Assembly (NCBI RefSeq): GCF_042231735.1
Contig: NZ_CP102577.1
Location: 2,847,281 to 2,911,280, forward strand
DNA: 64,000 nucleotides
Direction of reading: 5' to 3'
Source of the DNA: Corallococcus exercitus
GTDB taxonomy: Bacteria; Myxococcota; Myxococcia; Myxococcales; Myxococcaceae
Below, piece after piece: positions 22,507 to 61,901 of the stretch. Numbering within the stretch: the stretch's first letter is position 1; each line of letters opens with the position of its first letter. The notes below the pieces were generated by a model. It made no database searches, was not told the origin of the DNA, and saw nothing but the letters and a program-made list of their open reading frames with translations. The translations under genes were made by a program, and so were the position numbers.

Positions 22507-23238
22507 ATGCGACTGCTGGGCGCGGTGATGGCCCTGCTGAGTCTGTCGTGTGCCTCGGGCCCGGCGCGCTATGCGCAGTCGACGGACTCCGCGACGAACG
22601 GATGCTTTCGCAATCCCACCTGTTACACGCAGCCGGGGGATGAGGCGTTCCTTCCATGGGTGGACAAGGCCGCCAGGGCGGCGGCCACCGCGGGGGCGAC
22701 GCTGAAGGTGCTGGAGGCGGCGGACGTAGCCCTCATCGAGCACCTGCTTGTGGAGTGCTCCAAGGAAGCGAACCGCGTGGTCAATGAACGCGAGTACGGC
22801 GAGGGGAAATACCCGGACGACAAGGAGTGCTTGCGGGTGGTTGGCCAGGACAAGGACGGCAAGCCCCTTCGACGGCAGGCCGAACTCGGAACGCTGAAGC
22901 ACGAGTTTGCCTTCGCATGCGTGCGGCGTGAAATTCTCCGGCGCTTCCCCAACAACGTTTCGATTGAGCCGAGCTATGTGGTCCGCCCGCGTAGAGCGGC
23001 GCAACAACCGGAACTCATGAAGCCCGACGTCGTCCTTCACGCCTCGGGCCGGCCGGATCAGGTCCAATGCGTTTATGACTTCAAGTTTCCATGCCTCAAG
23101 GCACGCAAGAGCGATCCGCTCTCGGTCCAAGAAACGAAGGATCAGCTCCGCCGGTACACGGACCTCGAAGGGCAATGCAATCCCGCCATCATCACACCTC
23201 AGCTAGGGATCATTCGTGGACAGCTACACTCCCTCTGA
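22507..23238 (+). CDS. Secreted protein or lipoprotein of unknown function with a PD-(D/E)xK-like motif. It sits in lower-GC DNA.
   Basis: Signal peptide MRLLGAVMALLSLSCASG. It contains ...KPDVVLHASGRPDQVQCVYDFKFPC (PD then D-x-K about 17 aa later), plus several conserved Cys and acidic residues. Composition is visibly lower in GC than the flanks. Confidence 0.45.
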   Translation: MRLLGAVMALLSLSCASGPARYAQSTDSATNGCFRNPTCYTQPGDEAFLPWVDKAARAAATAGATLKVLEAADVALIEHLLVECSKEANRVVNEREYGEGKYPDDKECLRVVGQDKDGKPLRRQAELGTLKHEFAFACVRREILRRFPNNVSIEPSYVVRPRRAAQQPELMKPDVVLHASGRPDQVQCVYDFKFPCLKARKSDPLSVQETKDQLRRYTDLEGQCNPAIITPQLGIIRGQLHSL

Positions 23239-24220
23239 ACATTTCGCGATGACGCTCCCCAGGGTCCAGCTGGTCCTGCGCATCGTCTTCTATCTGCCGC
23301 ATGACCATGGCGTGGTGGCACCGGTCGTACGACGTCTCCTCGATATCTATCTCGCATTCATCGCAGCCAGTGGCGGAGCACTGACAACAGGAGAGGATCC
23401 CGACATCAGTGAGGCTCCTTTCCCACTCACTCCTGCTACCTGGGAGGAGGTCCACCAGGAACTGAAGAAGGCTCGTTTTGGCCCAATGGAAGACAGGGAT
23501 CAAGACTCCATCTGGTTCCGCATCTTGACCAAGAGGGGCTTCGATACACTCGTCCATCTCACGGGCGGAGAGTCGGACCCCAGTGGCTATGAATTCAGCT
23601 TCCGCTCCCGGCTCCCCTGGCGAGAACCCTCTGGTGAGTACAGCGTCCTGAGCGTGAAGGTCCCCATGCAGTTCCTGGAGGACCAGGGGCCTGAGAAGGC
23701 CTTTGAGCTGGCACGGGCGCTGGCGGAGCCACTTCCCTTCTCCACGGGTCATGCGGGGCTGTCGCTGTCATTCACCCGTGGCAGGTCCAGACTCCTTCCC
23801 CTCCTCAAGGACCATCTGGTCCGGCATCCCGGCTGGGATGTTCCACGCGAGAGCACATGGGGCATGGAAGAAGGGATCGACGGCATCCACTGGATGACCT
23901 TTCTGGGAGCTCCCCTCCTGGACACCCTGGGGGGGCCCGAGGCGATCCGCGCCCGGTTGCAGCATCCGGAGACCACCGTGCAGGAACTCACCGGGAGCCG
24001 TGCCCTGATCCGCCTGGGCCCCGCGCCCCTGGCGGGAGACACGAAGCTGGGTGAAACGCTGCCGGCGTACCGCGAGCTGGCCCGGTTCCTGGAACCGTGG
24101 CTCCAGCCCTCCCCTCCCTTCACCTCCTTCGAGGGCTACACACCGGAGGAGATGCGCCAGTGGTGGCGCCGCTTCCTGGAGCCGCCCCCAGCGGCAATCT
24201 CCAATCCACGCGAGGGATGA
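23216..24220 (+). CDS. Hypothetical protein; its start overlaps the previous gene by 23 bp. It is a possible immunity-like partner, which is inference only.
   Basis: 334-aa ORF beginning MDSYTPSEHF with no signal peptide. It has the same lower-GC composition as the upstream gene and is translationally coupled to it. Confidence 0.45.
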   Translation: MDSYTPSEHFAMTLPRVQLVLRIVFYLPHDHGVVAPVVRRLLDIYLAFIAASGGALTTGEDPDISEAPFPLTPATWEEVHQELKKARFGPMEDRDQDSIWFRILTKRGFDTLVHLTGGESDPSGYEFSFRSRLPWREPSGEYSVLSVKVPMQFLEDQGPEKAFELARALAEPLPFSTGHAGLSLSFTRGRSRLLPLLKDHLVRHPGWDVPRESTWGMEEGIDGIHWMTFLGAPLLDTLGGPEAIRARLQHPETTVQELTGSRALIRLGPAPLAGDTKLGETLPAYRELARFLEPWLQPSPPFTSFEGYTPEEMRQWWRRFLEPPPAAISNPREG

Positions 24221-33286: not shown

Positions 33287-34465
<1,179 letters not shown>

Positions 34466-34692
34466 TTATACCCAGCCCGCCCGTCCGGACGCACCCGCTT
34501 CCTGGGGGACGCCTGCCTGGCCTCCAGGAGGCCGCCCCGCCTCGGGAACCCCGGTTTCCCTACCCCACCCCCGGGGACGGGGGGCCGGAAGACGGCATTT
34601 CCGGGGCGGGCCGGCGGTTACATTGGGTCCTCCCGTCACCGATTCACCGCGCGTCTTGGGTCGCCGCGCCATTTCCGTTACAAGCCGCCGCC

Positions 34693-36291
34693 ATGTTCAA
34701 CGTCATCAACGTCTCCAAGGCCTACGGGCCCAAGAAACTTTTCGAGGAGGTCAACGTCGCCTTCTCGCCGGGCCGTCGCTACGGCCTGACCGGTCCGAAC
34801 GGGGCCGGCAAGTCCACGTTCATGAAGATCCTCGCGGGTGACGAGGAGCAGGACATGGGCGAGATCATCCGCCCCCGCAAGCTGGGCATCCTGCGCCAGG
34901 ACCACTTCCGCTACGAGAACGACCGCGTCATCGACGTGGTGCTGATGGGCAACCGCCACCTGTGGGCGGCCATGGACGAGAAGAACAAGCTCCTGGCCAA
35001 GGCCGACATCACGGAAGAGGACGGCAACCGGCTGGGTGAGCTGGAAGGCGTCATCGCGGAAGAGGACGGCTATTCGGCGGAGAGCGACGCGGCCACGCTG
35101 CTGGCGGGCCTTGGCATCGAGGAGTCCTTCCACGAAGAGCCCATGCGCCAGCTCACCGGCGGCCTGAAGCTGCGCGTGTTGCTCGCGCAGGCGCTGTTCG
35201 GCAAGCCGGAAGGCTTGCTGCTGGACGAGCCCACGAACAACCTGGACATCGACTCCATCCGCTGGCTGGAGAACTTCCTCCATGCGTACGAGGGCGTGCT
35301 GATCACCATCAGCCACGACCGGCACTTCCTGAACTCCATCTGCACGCACATCGCGGACATCGATTACGAGACCATCATCCAGTACACGGGTGGTTACGAC
35401 GACATGGTCCGGCAGAAGTCGCAGCTGCGGACCCGGGTCGAGGCCGAGACGGCGGAGAAGAAGAAGAAGATCGCCCAGCTGCAGGACTTCGTGGCGCGCT
35501 TCCACGCGGGTACGCGTGCGTCGCAGGTGCAGAGCCGCATCAAGCAGATCGACAAGCTGAAGACGGAGGACCTGAAGCGCTCGAACATCGCGCGGCCGTT
35601 CATCCGGTTCGACCAGAAGGTGGTCAGCGGCCGGCAGACGCTGATGTTCGAGGGCCTGAAGAAGTCCTTCGACGGGCAGCAGGTCATCAAGCCGTTCAAG
35701 GGGCTGGTCTGCAAGGGCGAGCGCATCTGCGTCATCGGCCGCAACGCCGTGGGCAAGTCCACGCTGGTGAAGATGCTGGCGGGGCAGCTGGAGCCGGACG
35801 CGGGCACCATCACCTGGGGCCACCAGGCGACGGTGGGCTACCTGCCGCAGGACCACCACGGCGTCATCCACAAGGGCACGACGTGCTTCGGCTATCTCCG
35901 GGAGATCAGCGAGAAGCTGACCAACGAGGAGATTTCGGGCGTGCTGGGCCGGATGCTCTTCTCGGGTGAGGAGCGGATGAAGCCCACGGACACGCTCTCC
36001 GGTGGTGAGACAGTGCGCGTGCTGTTGTCCAAGCTGATGATCATGCAGGACAACGTGCTGATCCTGGACGAGCCGACGAACCACCTGGACCTGGAGTCCA
36101 TCGCGGCGCTGGCCGAAGGCCTGTCCAAGTTCGAGGGCACGGTCATCTGCGTGACGCACGACCAGGAGCTCATCTCCGAGGTCGCGACCCGCATCTGGAG
36201 CCTGGAGGCGGGCAAGGAAGTCCTCGACTTCAACGGGCCTTACTCCGAGTTCATGGAGAAGCACGCGGACGCGGCGCAGAAGCGCCGGTAG
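34693..36291 (+). CDS. ABC-F family ATPase (EttA/Uup-like) with two ABC cassettes and no TM domain
   Basis: There are two Walker A motifs (GPNGAGKST and GRNAVGKST), two LSGGxx signatures (LTGGLKLRV and LSGGETVRV) and an inter-domain linker with the ABC-F coiled arm (KKKKIAQLQDFVARF). The start ATG is at 34693, leaving a roughly 236-nt leader. Confidence 0.85.
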   Translation: MFNVINVSKAYGPKKLFEEVNVAFSPGRRYGLTGPNGAGKSTFMKILAGDEEQDMGEIIRPRKLGILRQDHFRYENDRVIDVVLMGNRHLWAAMDEKNKLLAKADITEEDGNRLGELEGVIAEEDGYSAESDAATLLAGLGIEESFHEEPMRQLTGGLKLRVLLAQALFGKPEGLLLDEPTNNLDIDSIRWLENFLHAYEGVLITISHDRHFLNSICTHIADIDYETIIQYTGGYDDMVRQKSQLRTRVEAETAEKKKKIAQLQDFVARFHAGTRASQVQSRIKQIDKLKTEDLKRSNIARPFIRFDQKVVSGRQTLMFEGLKKSFDGQQVIKPFKGLVCKGERICVIGRNAVGKSTLVKMLAGQLEPDAGTITWGHQATVGYLPQDHHGVIHKGTTCFGYLREISEKLTNEEISGVLGRMLFSGEERMKPTDTLSGGETVRVLLSKLMIMQDNVLILDEPTNHLDLESIAALAEGLSKFEGTVICVTHDQELISEVATRIWSLEAGKEVLDFNGPYSEFMEKHADAAQKRR

Positions 36292-36318
36292 TCAGCACAG
36301 GATTAGCCAGGCAGTGCC

Positions 36319-36365
36319 AAACGCCGCCCGTTTCCGGTCCGTCCGGAAGCGAGGCGGCGTTTTCG
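36319..36365 (+). terminator. Intrinsic terminator after the ABC-F gene
   Basis: aaacgccgcc - cgtttccggtccgtccggaagcga - ggcggcgtttt. The stem GCCGCC/GGCGGC is followed by a T-tract. Confidence 0.5.
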
Positions 36366-36446
36366 TGGGCTGTCCATCCCTCTTCCGGGTGATGTCCCGG
36401 CCATGAATGGATCGACAAGACTCCGCTCGAGGCCGCCAGTCCAGGG

Positions 36447-37961
36447 TTGGCCTGGGGGTGGCTGATGGATCAGGTCATGGTGTGGGCGCCGCTGGCGTTG
36501 TTGTTCGCCGGCCTGTGGTTCCGGTCCCGCAGGCGGGTCCGTGACCTCCAGAAGCGGTTCAAACCCATCGTGGACGTTGAAGCTGAAAAGCAGCGGATCT
36601 CCGAAGAGATTGCGCACACACAGCTCGCGGCCACACTGGCGCGCGAAGCCGAGCGTCATCGAGCGGCCCAGGAAATCGCGGAGATCCGCAATGCCGCCGC
36701 GTTGGCCACTGCCGCGGAGCAGAAGCAGGTGGCCGCAGAATGTCACCGCATGCAGGAGGAGGCTTCGCGGGCAACAATAGCCGCCGCGCGGTCCGTGAAG
36801 GACGCGGAAGAGCAACGCCAGACGCTGATCAAGGAACAACAAGATCTGAAAGCCACCATCGCGCGATTGCGCGAAGAGCTTCGCCCCCTGGATGAAGAAG
36901 CGTTTCTCCTCTCCACGGGCTTCTACAAGCCGATCTATGCCTTCTCCTCTGTCGAGGAGTACGAACGCCGCCTGCAGGAGCTTCGCGAAAAGCAGAAGTC
37001 CATGTTGCAGGACAAGCGCGCTGCGACTTGTTCCATCGAGTGGGAGGTCAATGGGAGCAAGGCTGAGGGCAAGAGGCAGACGGAACGAACGCTGAAGCTG
37101 ATGCTTCGTGCGTTCAACGGCGAGGCCGACGCATGTGTCTCGAAGGTGACCTACAAGAACATCAAGACCATGGAAGCGCGCATCGAGAAAGCTGCGGATG
37201 CGATCAATGGCCTGACGAAGATCCAGAGTTGTACCATCGCGAGCCAGTATGTCGCCTTCAAGCTGGACGAACTGCGCCTTGCCCACGAGTACGCTGAGCG
37301 GATCCAACAGGAGCGCGACGAGCAGAAGCGCATTCGCGAGCAGATGCGCGAGGAAGAGGCGGCGCAGCGGGAGTTGGAGAAGGCGAAGCTGGAAGCAGAG
37401 CGCGAGGCGAAGCGAGACGCCGAGTCCTTGGCGAAGGCGAAAGCGGACTACGAGAAGGCCAAGGGCTCCGAACAGCAGAAGCTTCTGGAACGCATCGCGG
37501 AACTGGAGCGCCGCGTCGCCGAGGATCTGGAGAAGCAGCGAGCCATCTCCCAGGCCCAGCTCACACGGACGGGGCACGTCTATGTCATCTCAAACATCGG
37601 CTCGTTCGGAGAAGGCATTTTCAAGCTGGGGATGACCCGAAGGCTGGTGCCCCAGGACCGCATCGACGAACTGGGAGACGCCTCGGTGCCATTCGAGTTC
37701 GACGTCCACGCCATCATCCGGACCTCGGATGCGCCAGCGCTGGAGAGTGCCCTGCACCGAACCTTCGCGAACCGGCGCGTTAATCGCATCAACGAGCGCA
37801 AGGAGTTCTTCCGCGTCAGCCTGGAGGAAATCGCTGAGGCCGTGCGAAAACACCATGGTGAGTTTGAATTAACCTGGATTGCCGAAGCTGCGGAGTACCG
37901 GAAGTCACTGGCGCTACGGGAAGACGACAATAGCACCCAGTCACAACAAACCGCAGCGTGA
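36447..37961 (+). CDS. DUF4041-type protein with an N-terminal TM helix, about 330 aa of coiled coil, and a C-terminal T5orf172 / GIY-YIG-like (MUG113) domain. It sits in a low-GC islet.
   Basis: TM is VMVWAPLALLFAGLWF. A long E/K/R/A/Q-rich heptad-like region follows. The DUF4041-like core is STGFYKPIYAFSSVEEYERRLQELREKQK...KLMLRAFNGEADACVSKVTYKNIKTMEARIEKAADAINGL. The C-terminus is TGHVYVISNIGSFGEGIFKLGMTRRLVPQDRIDELGDASVPFEFDVHAIIRTSDAPALESALHRTFANRRVNRINERKEFFRVSLEEI, typical of T5orf172. Domain names are from memory. GC is clearly below the host level. Confidence 0.65.
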   Translation: MAWGWLMDQVMVWAPLALLFAGLWFRSRRRVRDLQKRFKPIVDVEAEKQRISEEIAHTQLAATLAREAERHRAAQEIAEIRNAAALATAAEQKQVAAECHRMQEEASRATIAAARSVKDAEEQRQTLIKEQQDLKATIARLREELRPLDEEAFLLSTGFYKPIYAFSSVEEYERRLQELREKQKSMLQDKRAATCSIEWEVNGSKAEGKRQTERTLKLMLRAFNGEADACVSKVTYKNIKTMEARIEKAADAINGLTKIQSCTIASQYVAFKLDELRLAHEYAERIQQERDEQKRIREQMREEEAAQRELEKAKLEAEREAKRDAESLAKAKADYEKAKGSEQQKLLERIAELERRVAEDLEKQRAISQAQLTRTGHVYVISNIGSFGEGIFKLGMTRRLVPQDRIDELGDASVPFEFDVHAIIRTSDAPALESALHRTFANRRVNRINERKEFFRVSLEEIAEAVRKHHGEFELTWIAEAAEYRKSLALREDDNSTQSQQTAA

Positions 37962-38001
37962 GACACGAATCACCTAACAGCGATCAGCTTCCTCTGCGAC
38001 A

Positions 38002-38838
38002 ATGACACAGGCTCTTCCAACACCCGATGACGTCCCTCCTCCAGGCGTTATGAGATGGCTCATCTCCTGCGACGAATCCGGAACAGGCGGCTCGCCCTTC
38101 TACGGCTTCGGAACACTCTGGATGAACTGGCAAAGGCGTGGAAACTTCTCCGAACTCATCCAGGATCTTCGAGAGAAACATAAGTACGAATTTGAAATCA
38201 AATGGAACAAAGTCTCCGGCAGGAATTTGCCATTTTATCGAGACTTGGTGGAAGCCTTCTTCAAGACCAGCTGGATGCACTTTCACTGCATAGTCGTGAA
38301 ACAGGCAGACGTGCGTTTAGATTTCCACGATCGAGACTGGGATCTTGCGCGCCGAAAGCACTTCACCATGCTCCTGACCAACAAGATCAGGCGCTGCCTC
38401 ACCAAGAATCCCAATCGAGATTTGACGTTTCGAATATGGGTTGACCCCATTGCCTCACGCTACAAAAAGGCCAATGAAGCGGTGGAGATTATCGCCAACA
38501 ACGCACTCCAACAGGTTTTCAAGCGACTCCGCCCCGTCGACAAGGTCATTACTCGCGATTCGCGCGACACTCCAAGCATTCAGCTTTGCGATCTCCTCCT
38601 CGGCGCGGTGATGGAAGGTTGGCAGCGAAAGTCCGACTCCGAGTCCAAGCAGGAGCTGCGCGAATGGATTGCTGAACACCTTGGTTGGGACGACTTGGCG
38701 AACGACACACACAGAGACGAAACGAAGTTCAACATCTGGTATTTTCACGATCCGATATCAAAACCCAAGCGATCCGCCCTCACGCGTCCCGTCAAATTGA
38801 GATACCCACTGCCAACCGGCAAACGGCGTCGTTCGTAG
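38002..38838 (+). CDS. DUF3800 family protein, in the low-GC islet directly downstream of the DUF4041/T5orf172 gene
   Basis: The N-terminal MRWLISCDESGTGGSPFYGFG (DESG hallmark) and the distal SIQLCDLLLGAVMEG (QLxDL motif) match my recollection of DUF3800. About 50% GC by eye, with AT-rich codons (aaa, gaa, ttt) that are rare in the flanking genes. Confidence 0.6.
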   Translation: MTQALPTPDDVPPPGVMRWLISCDESGTGGSPFYGFGTLWMNWQRRGNFSELIQDLREKHKYEFEIKWNKVSGRNLPFYRDLVEAFFKTSWMHFHCIVVKQADVRLDFHDRDWDLARRKHFTMLLTNKIRRCLTKNPNRDLTFRIWVDPIASRYKKANEAVEIIANNALQQVFKRLRPVDKVITRDSRDTPSIQLCDLLLGAVMEGWQRKSDSESKQELREWIAEHLGWDDLANDTHRDETKFNIWYFHDPISKPKRSALTRPVKLRYPLPTGKRRRS

Positions 38839-39074
38839 CACTCAATTCACGAGGGCCGACGAACCGGAGCCTTGAGTGAAGCGAATAGTGTAGCGCGTTT
38901 AGGGCCATCATCCTTCGTCGCGTCTTTGGACTCCTACTGGCACTGCTCCCCTTCCCGATTGGTGCTGCCCTCGTACCAGCTTTGCCCTAGCTCCACATCC
39001 AGGCAACGTGGTGTGTATGGACAACCGTTCTTAATGGCGAGGGAAACGGGCGTGAGTGGGTATGATGCAGGGCC

Positions 39075-40523
39075 ATGTATCCGAGACGCCGTCTTCTGGC
39101 CCGTGGACCGTGGTTGTTCGATCTCAGACCGCAGCGGCTCATCGTCTTCCACGGAGCCGAAGGCGTGCGCCGGGAGGTCAGTGGCGACGTGCCGGATCAT
39201 CCGTCCGCGCCCGTGGAGCTCGCCGCGCTCAACGAGGCACAGGACGTCTGGGTGGGATGCGGGGATCGGCGTGTCTTCTCCGTGGGGGCCGGCGCGGGCG
39301 CTCCCGTCCAGGCCTTTCCGAGGGAGTGCTTCGATCTCACCTCCGATGGGGACCGACTCATCGGAACGGTGGTGGACGGCGCCCGCAAGCTCACCACCCT
39401 CTTCACGACCGATGGGTCCGGGCAGCAAAGGGCGCCCATGACCTTGCCCAAGCCCGTGCGCGCCTCGCACGGGTATGGGTATTCCGAGGGGCGCCCCCAG
39501 CGTCAGTCCCCTGATGGGGCGTTCCTCGACACGAGCCCCTTTGGCATCACCGTCGTGGAGAAGGGCCGGGGCCGCGTCTACGTGCTCCGCGCGGGGGCGG
39601 CTCAGCCGGAGGGCGCGCTCCAGGTGGAGCCGGGCGGTGAGGAGGACATCTGGCGGGCCCAGGCCACTCCCCAGGGCGTGCTTCTCCTGCTCGTCATCAA
39701 CTACCGGCAGACGGCGCTCCTCCACTTCGCGCTCGATGGCACCCTGCTCGGCTCCATCCCGGCGATCGATGATGAGGATGACGATGCGGAAGAACTGATC
39801 TGGGGCGGTGCCGGGGTGTGCGTCCTCGACGCGGACCGGGCGCTCCTCTTCGTCCAGGACAAGACCCTCCTGGTGTCCCTGCCCGAGCTCCAGGTGTTGG
39901 AGACGGTCGTGGGGGAGTGGCCTGCCTTCGTGTCCGTGACGCCCGCGGGGCCTGACCGGTGGTGGGTGGGCGCCGAGGACAGGGACTCGCTCTTCCTGCT
40001 CACCGCCGAGCCCGGACACCCCTTGCGCCTCCACGCCTCAAACCGTCCGGTGATCCCGGGCGCTCCGCTCATGCACGTGGGCTACAAGACGCCCGCGATC
40101 CACTGGGCCGAGCACACCTCGGCGCCGCTCACCGTTTCCGCGCCCGTGACCGAGACGTGGCGCGCGGTGGTGCGAAATGACGGGACCGCGTGTGAGGCCG
40201 TGCGGATCCGGGTGTCCGGGGCGCTCGTCGGCGCTCGCGTGGTGGATGTGAGCGTGCGGTATCGCGGCCAGCCGCTCCCGATGGTGGAGGAGCAGCGCGT
40301 GAACGTCGTGGGCATTACCGCTGGACTGGAGGCAGGGGCCACCGCGGAGCTGGAGGTAACCTTCAAGCCCCGGAGCGAGGGCTCGGGACCGCTGACCATC
40401 ACCGTCGAGCCGTGCTCCTGGCAGGCGCAGGCCAAAGAATGGCAATGGGACAAAGAGCAGCCTCGCGTCCTCGTGATGACGGGCCATACGGCAAGCGCCC
40501 AGTTCCCGCTCACGGTGGAGTAG
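39075..40523 (+). CDS. Hypothetical protein (482 aa), convergent with and overlapping the pseudokinase gene by 14 bp
   Basis: Long ORF with host-like codon usage and no family that I recognise. Confidence 0.45.
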   Translation: MYPRRRLLARGPWLFDLRPQRLIVFHGAEGVRREVSGDVPDHPSAPVELAALNEAQDVWVGCGDRRVFSVGAGAGAPVQAFPRECFDLTSDGDRLIGTVVDGARKLTTLFTTDGSGQQRAPMTLPKPVRASHGYGYSEGRPQRQSPDGAFLDTSPFGITVVEKGRGRVYVLRAGAAQPEGALQVEPGGEEDIWRAQATPQGVLLLLVINYRQTALLHFALDGTLLGSIPAIDDEDDDAEELIWGGAGVCVLDADRALLFVQDKTLLVSLPELQVLETVVGEWPAFVSVTPAGPDRWWVGAEDRDSLFLLTAEPGHPLRLHASNRPVIPGAPLMHVGYKTPAIHWAEHTSAPLTVSAPVTETWRAVVRNDGTACEAVRIRVSGALVGARVVDVSVRYRGQPLPMVEEQRVNVVGITAGLEAGATAELEVTFKPRSEGSGPLTITVEPCSWQAQAKEWQWDKEQPRVLVMTGHTASAQFPLTVE

Positions 40524-43402: not shown

Positions 43403-43666
43403 TCAGTAATAGCAGCGCCAGTAGTCGTACCCTTCCCCGTCGCAATAGCAGAAGGCGTGACCCACACCCGAGGGGCGAATACAGGTACGCGGGTTGGCCC
43501 CAGTCGAGGGACAGGCCATCCCATCCAGCACGTCGCACTGGAGAATCGCCGAGGCGGAGACGTCAGGCGCCGTCTGGCTTGCCGTGTCATCCACGGTCTC
43601 GGGCTCCATCGTGCCACCACAGCCAACGAGCAGCCCAAACATCAACGCTGAAACAATCCCTCGCAT
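43403..43666 (-). CDS. Small Cys-rich lipoprotein (88 aa)
   Basis: The internal start MRGIVSALMFGLLVGCGG has a lipobox. The mature part has 7 Cys and ends CYCDGEGYDYWRCYY. Confidence 0.4.
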   Translation of the reverse strand: MRGIVSALMFGLLVGCGGTMEPETVDDTASQTAPDVSASAILQCDVLDGMACPSTGANPRTCIRPSGVGHAFCYCDGEGYDYWRCYY

Positions 43667-43880
43667 GTACACCCTCCCGGTTGAGAAGCATTGCGACGAT
43701 AACACCGCTTCTCGGTGGGACTCCAATAATCCGCGACATGTGACGCAACGCCAGCACAGTGCGCGGCATGGTGTCTTGGGTTACCCCTGCGTCTTCTCTT
43801 GCAGCGCAATGATCAGTCACTGTGTGTGCGAGAAGAAGCGGTGACCGTAGACCCATGGCGGGTTAGCGTTCGCGGCGCTC

Positions 43881-61713: not shown

Positions 61714-61788
61714 TGGAGCGGGAAAAGGGATTTGAACCCTCGACCCTCGCCTTGGCAAGGCGATGCTCTACCGCTGAGCTATTCCCGC
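61714..61788 (-). tRNA. tRNA-Gly (anticodon GCC), CCA encoded
   Basis: Reverse complement is GCGGGAATAGCTCAGCGGTAGAGCATCGCCTTGCCAAGGCGAGGGTCGAGGGTTCAAATCCCTTTTCCCGCTCCA. The cloverleaf is folded by eye, with anticodon loop TTGCCAA. Confidence 0.9.
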
Positions 61789-61826
61789 ATCTGGTGCCGC
61801 TGAACGACCGTACCGCTGACTGCTTT

Positions 61827-61901
61827 TGGAGCGGGAAAAGGGATTTGAACCCTCGACCCTCGCCTTGGCAAGGCGATGCTCTACCGCTGAGCTATTCCCG
61901 C
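61827..61901 (-). tRNA. tRNA-Gly (anticodon GCC), identical second copy, CCA encoded
   Basis: 75 nt identical to the copy at 61714-61788, separated by a 38-bp spacer. Confidence 0.9.

Follow-up and report, generated by a model that had tools for sequence, protein, structure and literature searches.

Several members of the DUF3800 family (Pfam PF12686), which is defined by a DE motif and a QxxD motif (PMC7736814), have been described from loci with a defence context. These include the DUF3800 proteins of type VII retrons and the TPR-DUF3800 proteins of Cas12a2/Cas12a3 and type VI-F loci, which share a predicted RNase H fold and are fused or paired with a reverse transcriptase (RT), TPR or Cas effectors. 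Other members, such as RlfA of phage P1 and RapA of phage P7, are carried by temperate phages and phage-plasmids, and eleven different RNA motifs have been associated with DUF3800 genes (Weinberg et al., PMC5737381). Here, we describe a DUF3800 gene in a 64-kb stretch of the genome of Corallococcus exercitus (the window, meaning the stretch at its full length), where it lies directly downstream of, and on the same strand as, a gene for SNIPE. SNIPE, also known as PD-lambda-1, is a membrane-anchored GIY-YIG nuclease that cuts phage DNA during injection, and has been found by experiment to suffice as a single gene in Escherichia coli (PMC13190303). In contrast to the retron and Cas-locus proteins, the C. 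exercitus protein is stand-alone, with no RT, Cas or TPR neighbour. It is a newly found member of a known, uncharacterised family, and its gene was recently imported into a slot next to the resident SNIPE gene. On balance, and with moderate confidence, we favour the view that it is an independent, horizontally acquired single-gene RNase H2-like nuclease, carried as defence or exclusion cargo.

A preliminary description of the locus, made from the letters of the sequence alone, had assigned the open reading frame (ORF) to DUF3800 by its motifs, and the profile search bears this out, with a match to PF12686 of 44.1 bits against a cutoff of 21 (E=4.4e-11; residues 23-203, profile positions 4-146 of 149). 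The ORF also matches the PADLOC model for PDC-M04A (PDLC04353; E=1.5e-36, profile positions 7-227 of 232) and, along its full length, phrog_3732 (E=4.4e-88), and none of the NCBIfam models matched the protein. With full-domain matches to all three, it is an intact member of a compact, phrog_3732/PDC-M04A-like subfamily. Whereas the Pfam model ends at residue 203, this subfamily adds a conserved C-terminal extension of ~70 residues, in which K242, N244, W246 and R257 are invariant. The DESG and QLCDLL motifs noticed earlier fall at D24-E25 and Q194-D197, and the sites of the putative catalytic carboxylates are as follows:

38071..38082, forward strand: C-D24-E25-S-G, the DE motif, at the end of beta-strand 1; D24 and E25 are the first two putative catalytic carboxylates
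38443..38445, forward strand: D148 (in V-D-P-I), the third putative catalytic carboxylate, invariant, just past strand 140-147 (strand 4)
38581..38598, forward strand: Q194-L-C-D197-L-L, the QxxD motif, in helix 191-208, with D197 as number four of the putative catalytic carboxylates

D24 and E25, on a modelled strand spanning residues 16-26, and D197 are invariant across 48 homologs, and C196 is invariant in the homolog alignment A2, while Q194 is kept in most homologs but not all, with G or M in some. E159 is a further member of the invariant carboxylate set, besides D24-E25, D148 and D197, and in the window copy every invariant residue is intact. The structure model has an RNase H-like fold, with a central mixed beta-sheet and flanking helices, and the folds closest to it are those of RNase H2/HII, not transposases. 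Type-2 RNases H are characterised by an adjacent Asp-Glu pair on strand 1, followed by two Asp residues, and the succession seen here, from D24/E25 on strand 1 to D148 after strand 4 and D197 in its helix, is, by secondary-structure position, the order expected for a DEDD set, and is in line with what has been predicted in the literature for other DUF3800 proteins. In type VII retron proteins, by comparison, the set is DEED and the QxxD motif is missing its Q (PMC7736814). The likeness to type-2 RNase H (RNase HII/H2A; PDB 1io2 and 3puf) amounts to only 10-12% sequence identity, and a sequence-level search of PDB chains gave no match to the window protein. It also differs from these enzymes in its extra helices and C-terminal extension, and in being a mobile accessory rather than a housekeeping gene. 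Judged by the model, it is nonetheless highly probable that the window protein is an RNase H-like nuclease.

The gene lies in an islet whose features, with the core genes that flank it, are:

34456..36291, forward strand: ABC-F ATPase, the left core flank, with a host-like GC content at third codon positions (GC3) of 0.92
36465..37961, forward strand: SNIPE/PD-lambda-1, with an N-terminal hydrophobic segment, a DUF4041/SNIPE domain and a T5orf172 GIY-YIG nuclease domain (Pfam, PADLOC)
37962..38001, forward strand: 40-bp spacer from SNIPE, whose stop codon ends at 37961, to the DUF3800 gene
38002..38838, forward strand: DUF3800 gene, ATG to TAG, 278 amino acids (aa), predicted RNase H2-like nuclease
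38839..39074, no strand: 236-bp spacer 3' of the DUF3800 gene; the next credible gene starts at 39075
37916..39028, no strand: 1,113-bp segment of GC content 0.535 unique to the C. exercitus genome, delimited by blastn breakpoints and junction alignments
39075..40523, forward strand: conserved 482-aa gene without a Pfam match, the right core flank, followed as in C. exiguus by a Ser/Thr kinase gene on the reverse strand and a beta-lactamase-family gene

The ORF product is 100% identical to C. exercitus proteins at NCBI, and the start codon is the one uncertain point in the DUF3800 gene call. NCBI places the start at Met17 (nt 38050), which gives a protein of 262 aa and an upstream gap of 88 bp, but because a PP-PGV stretch N-terminal to Met17 is kept at the protein level among homologs, and residues 11-20 are modelled with a predicted local distance difference test score (pLDDT) of ~90, the evidence favours 38002. 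The true start of the ABC-F gene is probably near 34693, judging from its orthologs, which are 532 aa long.

The preliminary description had also singled out this gene as the most AT-rich in the window and the one with the least host-like codons, and had read its codon usage as a sign of recent horizontal acquisition together with the T5orf172 gene upstream. The composition holds up on measurement: against a window GC content of 0.698, the 38-39 kb bin is the lowest (0.535), and the gene has the lowest GC content (0.527; z=-4.8), GC3 (0.638; z=-5.0) and codon adaptation index (CAI, derived from the remaining genes; 0.279, z=-4.0) of the 42 credible genes. Recent acquisition is borne out as well, but its extension to the upstream gene is not. 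In blastn comparisons with C. exiguus, C. coralloides and Myxococcus xanthus, homology across the ABC-F and SNIPE genes (80-92% identity to C. exiguus and C. coralloides, 76% to M. xanthus) stops at 37915, and it restarts at 39029 in C. exiguus and at 39059 in C. coralloides, from where it continues through the 482-aa, Ser/Thr kinase and beta-lactamase-family genes. The right-hand boundary of the islet thus falls in the spacer 3' of the DUF3800 gene, where it had been suspected. The unique segment contains the last ~15 codons of SNIPE, the 40-bp spacer, the DUF3800 gene and 190 bp of 3' non-coding DNA. Its left end has given SNIPE a new, shorter tail (37916-37961), which lies beyond the T5orf172 domain (domain end at residue 468); at its right end, 38839-39028 was imported with the cassette, and 39029-39074 is DNA conserved upstream of the 482-aa gene, which is itself resident. 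No att-like sequences and no terminal inverted or direct repeats were found at the window junctions.

SNIPE occupies the same ABC-F-flanked place, with 80-85% nucleotide identity to the window copy, in C. exiguus, C. coralloides, C. sicarius, C. praedator and Corallococcus sp. ZKHCc1 1396. In these five relatives it is followed either by a SIR2_2 gene and a gene of ~221 aa or by an unrelated gene of 265 aa, and never by DUF3800; in some Corallococcus loci it is preceded by a DUF4011 helicase-nuclease of 1,730 aa. In M. xanthus, SNIPE is solitary and at another locus. Going by these alignments, SNIPE is the older resident and DUF3800 the new import, and the locus is a Corallococcus defence hotspot past ABC-F in which SNIPE stays and the next slot is exchanged between species.

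This hotspot (L022, L023, L030, L031 and L032, where L numbers denote the individual loci compared; 36292-39074 in the window) has further features of its own. A cluster of the DUF4011/AAA_11/AAA_12/MTES_1575 helicase-nuclease (~1,730 aa), SNIPE, SIR2_2 and the ~221-aa gene is complete in three of five genomes, and SIR2_2 (576-594 aa) follows SNIPE after a gap of 39-40 bp in four of the five. In C. coralloides, the 9.4-kb island is flanked by a direct repeat of ~65 bp (L023:1630-1694 and L023:11052-11117), identical at 31 of 31 positions and then 82% identical over 34 nt, which is the hairpin/terminator region right after ABC-F and looks like an att-type duplication. The window holds one copy only of this ABC-F terminator repeat, at 36307-36367.

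The arrangement at the locus raises the question of whether DUF3800 and SNIPE form a two-gene system, in which a co-acquired DUF3800 would be a second effector, a regulator or an immunity factor to SNIPE. The upstream gene matches the PADLOC PD-Lambda-1 model end to end (E=1.6e-153) and carries the Pfam domains DUF4041 (renamed 'SNIPE' in Pfam) and T5orf172/MUG113. SNIPE is thus, like DUF3800, part of the islet, and is itself an anti-phage nuclease, but its family and fold (a transmembrane segment with DUF4041 and GIY-YIG) are unrelated to those of DUF3800. A partnership would be in keeping with the 40-bp gap on a shared strand, both confirmed from the preliminary description, and with the lack of an intervening terminator, since neither a terminator nor a sigma-70-like promoter was detected in 37962-38001. 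Both genes are also AT-richer than the host, and in sister species SIR2_2 likewise sits 39-40 bp after SNIPE, so that SNIPE may commonly sit in operons. The window spacer is, however, not homologous to that between SNIPE and SIR2_2, and the equal length therefore looks coincidental. SNIPE has an intermediate GC3 of 0.77, like its orthologs (0.72-0.89), which are widespread in Myxococcaceae, against 0.64 for DUF3800; it acts alone in E. coli and stands alone in M. xanthus, and it is resident in five other Corallococcus genomes whereas DUF3800 is, among these genomes, found only in that of C. exercitus, with the left breakpoint inside the 3' end of SNIPE.

The wider comparison points the same way. 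Of ~99 loci with a DUF3800 ortholog (17 genome loci and 73 viral ones screened by tblastn, and nine by means of gene tables), none has a SNIPE homolog nearby. This holds for the 17 genome loci, which come from a collection at species level and have no SNIPE homolog up to 8 kb away, for the closest relatives of the window protein (73-61% identity; from metagenomes, Sorangium and a deltaproteobacterial metagenome-assembled genome, MAG) and for the 73 viral or prophage contigs. Conversely, DUF3800 was found next to SNIPE in none of six other SNIPE loci examined. In Corallococcus sp. ZKHCc1 1396, the gene of 265 aa that follows SNIPE had been considered as a second SNIPE-DUF3800 pair, and was rejected when it proved unrelated to DUF3800. 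The role of downstream partner to the T5orf172 gene, which the preliminary description had given to DUF3800, does not survive these comparisons: they have already largely refuted a two-gene system, to which we attach very little probability, and DUF3800 very probably works independently of SNIPE.

Nor does DUF3800 have another regular companion. Clustering of the neighbouring ORFs revealed no recurrent protein partner, none of the ~99 loci has one, and components of PDC-M04 other than A were absent among the window neighbours (only PD-Lambda-1 matched) and among the neighbours of the orthologs. The small ORFs upstream of DUF3800 in the phages Chuche and PHL101 are mutually unrelated and have no PADLOC match. 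An exhaustive search of 1.84 billion cluster representatives returned 868 related clusters at E<=1e-3, 51 of them at E<=1e-30, and in nearly all clusters DUF3800 is single-copy per genome. The 17 ortholog loci (46-53% identity) come from Alteromonas, Colwellia, Ferrimonas, Vibrio, Methylophaga, Polyangiaceae and Vicinamibacterales, and at 18 of 19 loci the ortholog has a higher AT content than the DNA around it. A Methylophaga MAG has, 4 kb upstream of its full-length ortholog, a further and incomplete DUF3800 paralog (L004:3553-3924, reverse strand), with 34% identity over 118 aa.

The gene travels by itself in very different vehicles. In Vibrio cincinnatiensis (NZ_SGOM01000026.1; L003:1972-3038), six attC-like repeats (TAACAA...GCGTTA), spaced 0.5-1 kb apart, form an array in which two successive repeats enclose the ortholog and no other ORF; judged by these repeats, it is a single-gene integron cassette. 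An attC-like sequence also abuts the stop codon of the ortholog in Ferrimonas, at a Colwellia locus and on one IMG/VR contig (L001, L006, L015 and L055). In the P2-like phage Chuche, the DUF3800 gene has the portal gene on one side and the partition/replication genes on the other. Mannheimia PHL101 carries it downstream of the cI operon, with a promoter and a terminator annotated as its own, and the lambdoid prophages of E. coli and Salmonella plasmids have it in inverted orientation, flanked by antiterminator Q and the holin gene. Among IMG/VR contigs, both immediate neighbours are on the opposite strand in 40 of 71 loci, and a Q-like antiterminator (four PHROG families) is found within three ORFs in at least 37 of the 71, with a holin on the other side in 24. 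In some lambdoid prophages, tRNA clusters separate the inverted DUF3800 gene from the lysis genes (L034:5225-5443; L049:5558-5866, reverse strand), an arrangement that presumably resembles the Q-tRNA-stx order of Stx phages. Such mobility could also be expected of a selfish nuclease that inserts itself, either homing-endonuclease-like or a small transposase with a DDE/RNase H fold. We regard this as extremely doubtful, as the window junctions carry no terminal inverted or direct repeats, the gene is single-copy in nearly all clusters, the fold is closest to RNase H2/HII, and the mobility is accounted for by attC sites in Vibrio and by moron hotspots in phages.

As the preliminary description had stated for the family at large, DUF3800 genes of this clade often keep company with defence genes. 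Beside SNIPE in the window, these are DitA and MADS in Alteromonas, BREX, type I restriction-modification (R-M), SoFic and AEP-TOTE at other loci, and, adjoining the closest relative of the window gene, an RT and a SAVED gene. A location in a defence island or as mobile cargo was thus found both for the window gene (with SNIPE) and for its orthologs (islands, the integron cassette and prophage accessory slots). In Alteromonas sp. LOR (L009:8792-10903, and likewise L010 and L017), another defence island begins right after DUF3800 with two adjacent ORFs that correspond to the two halves of PADLOC DitA, N-terminal and C-terminal, and may be one split or frameshifted gene; a gene like mad1 of MADS comes next.

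The main rival to a defence role is that the protein is a non-defence helper of mobile elements, an accessory nuclease that would serve its element by removing RNA primers or R-loops in replication, with the Corallococcus copy a stranded fragment that has no host role. The type-2 RNase H-like fold would suit primer or R-loop processing, and the DUF3800 gene is abundant in prophages. In addition, the distant P1 homolog rlfA is a neighbour of the lytic replicon, and its annotation reads 'possibly associated with lytic replication'. RlfA and P7 RapA have ~26% identity to the window protein over 81% of the query, and they lie beside repL, unlike the window gene; both are accessory genes that are non-essential and often replaced. 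The inverted slot between Q and the holin gene in lambdoid phages and the position after the cI operon in PHL101 are away from replication genes and typical of cargo expressed in the lysogen, and neither integron cassettes nor chromosomal defence islands are replication modules. That the window copy retains every invariant residue also speaks against this rival. We therefore consider this explanation unlikely, if still the strongest of the competing ones.

A feature that sets the phage-borne orthologs apart is a structured RNA element of ~106 nt 3' of the gene, which begins at most ~10 nt past the stop codon. DNA homology among these orthologs, in otherwise unrelated phage backbones, extends ~70 nt upstream and ~105 nt downstream of the ORF. 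The element consists of a hairpin P1 with a conserved ACCUCYCAGC loop and a helix P2 that encloses a variable hairpin P3, and it has an apparent H-type pseudoknot (GGCGG / UUGGGA / CCGCC / UCCCAA). In 30 sequences, 92% of the cells pair, compared with 29-53% with slid partners, and compensatory changes occur in 11 pairs. A model-guided alignment of 45 distinct sequences raises this to 16 of 21 pairs, compared with 4-7 in slid controls, although this alignment was in part adjusted to the structure and its sequences include many relatives. Of 77 phage or prophage loci, 70 have a match to the covariance model R1, in each case on the strand of the gene, and the matches include four loci outside the model's building set (Chuche, 102.5 bits; PHL101, 55.6 bits; and the two plasmid prophages, 109 and 119 bits). 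Examples are:

L058:6809-6920, forward strand: 3' element
L026:6781-6889: 3' element
L027:6788-6911: 3' element
L028:6809-6920: 3' element
L029:6794-6899: 3' element
65 other IMG/VR loci: 3' element

The element has no match in Rfam 15 even at E<=10, and it may be a further, undescribed case of the association between DUF3800 genes and RNAs. Rfam found nothing at E<=10 in positions 35500-40000 of the window, nothing relevant in nine chromosomal ortholog loci, and only tRNAs, C4, isrK and a group II intron in 11 viral loci. The R1 element is absent from the window (best scores of ~10 bits, elsewhere) and from the integron and chromosomal orthologs.

These observations bear on two proposals in which the RNA is central. 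In the first, the clade is a protein-RNA module that needs a structured RNA encoded in cis, and the window copy is either inactive or uses a lineage-specific RNA within its 190-bp flank. The eleven RNA motifs tied to DUF3800 genes by Weinberg et al. (PMC5737381), the covarying element in most phage-borne copies and the 190 bp of 3' non-coding DNA that came with the window cassette would all fit. Against this, the 236-bp spacer shows no excess folding (z=+0.69 on the forward and +1.67 on the reverse strand), the window 3' flank has no R1 or Rfam match and does not resemble the flanks of its closest relatives, and the clade as a whole does not share the RNA, since the element is likewise missing from integron and chromosomal orthologs; we hold this to be very improbable. 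The second proposal, somewhat less improbable though still rather doubtful, is that the clade is a widespread and autonomous anti-phage superinfection-exclusion nuclease, RNase H2-like and made of one protein, whose ancestral mobile unit was the gene with a 3' RNA in cis (regulatory, antitoxin-like or guide-like), of which the window, integron and chromosomal copies are RNA-less derivatives. If true, it would amount to a defence architecture of a new type, in which protein and RNA are combined around an RNase H fold, and would extend Weinberg's unexplained DUF3800-RNA association.

Taken as independent single-gene cargo, the reading we prefer, the locus can be explained as follows. The AT-rich segment of 1.1 kb (37916-39028), with DUF3800 as its sole gene, would have recombined into the defence slot past ABC-F and SNIPE, replacing the SIR2_2-containing genes of sister species and clipping the non-domain C-terminal tail of SNIPE. 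Here, DUF3800 is probably transcribed by read-through from SNIPE, because no terminator intervenes. The protein would be a metal-dependent nuclease that acts on a nucleic-acid intermediate of an invader, most plausibly an RNA-DNA hybrid or a structured substrate, and its carrier, be it a prophage, an integron host or a chromosome, may gain protection against or exclusion of other phages, independently of SNIPE.

Several points weigh against this explanation. Many neighbours in the ortholog loci are ordinary metabolic genes, and the distant P1 relative rlfA is annotated as linked to replication, not defence. PADLOC files the DUF3800 model as component 'A' of a multi-gene candidate, whose name we take to be PDC-M04, so that an unrecognised partner is possible, although no other component of it was found at the window or ortholog loci. 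The co-orientation, short gap and missing terminator are compatible with co-expression with SNIPE, and if the phage-type 3' RNA is required, the window copy, which is without it, could be crippled. Literature searches found no experiment on defence or nuclease activity for this DUF3800 subfamily and nothing on PDC-M04. Accordingly, we put the narrower claim that the gene serves defence specifically at slightly less than an even chance.

Elsewhere in the window, a gene at 23216-24220 on the forward strand, whose product belongs to TsiV (E=2e-41), a family of type VI immunity to VRR-NUC toxins, lies in a low-GC patch at ~22.4-24.2 kb. With a GC content of 0.637, a GC3 of 0.75 and a CAI of 0.43, the third-lowest in the window and the second-lowest outside the islet, it is probably another horizontally acquired conflict gene. 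A 116-aa ORF at 43494-43844 on the forward strand (GC 0.598; CAI 0.40, the second-lowest; no Pfam match) may be a foreign gene or not a real gene, and two tandem tRNA-Gly(GCC) genes lie at 61714-61901 on the reverse strand.

For Corallococcus, the comparison means that the islet is not a two-gene system; rather, next to a resident SNIPE, the neighbouring slot is swapped among species between SIR2_2, an unknown 265-aa gene and DUF3800. For the family, it points to a compact gene of ~265 aa that selection keeps on the move as one piece, in integrons, in prophage hotspots of three kinds and in chromosomal defence islands, across Proteobacteria, Myxococcota and Acidobacteriota. The structured RNA 3' of the phage copies adds an apparently undescribed case to the puzzle of structured RNAs beside DUF3800 genes. 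An anonymous DUF becomes a testable candidate, with a confident type-2 RNase H-like model and four residues to mutate, and orthologs in E. coli prophages, which are ~50% identical and include that of pMTY18781-3 at L028:6007-6810, open the clade to testing on standard phage panels. Thus, although the feature in the window is of an ordinary kind for a defence islet, the clade to which it belongs is an attractive single-gene candidate.

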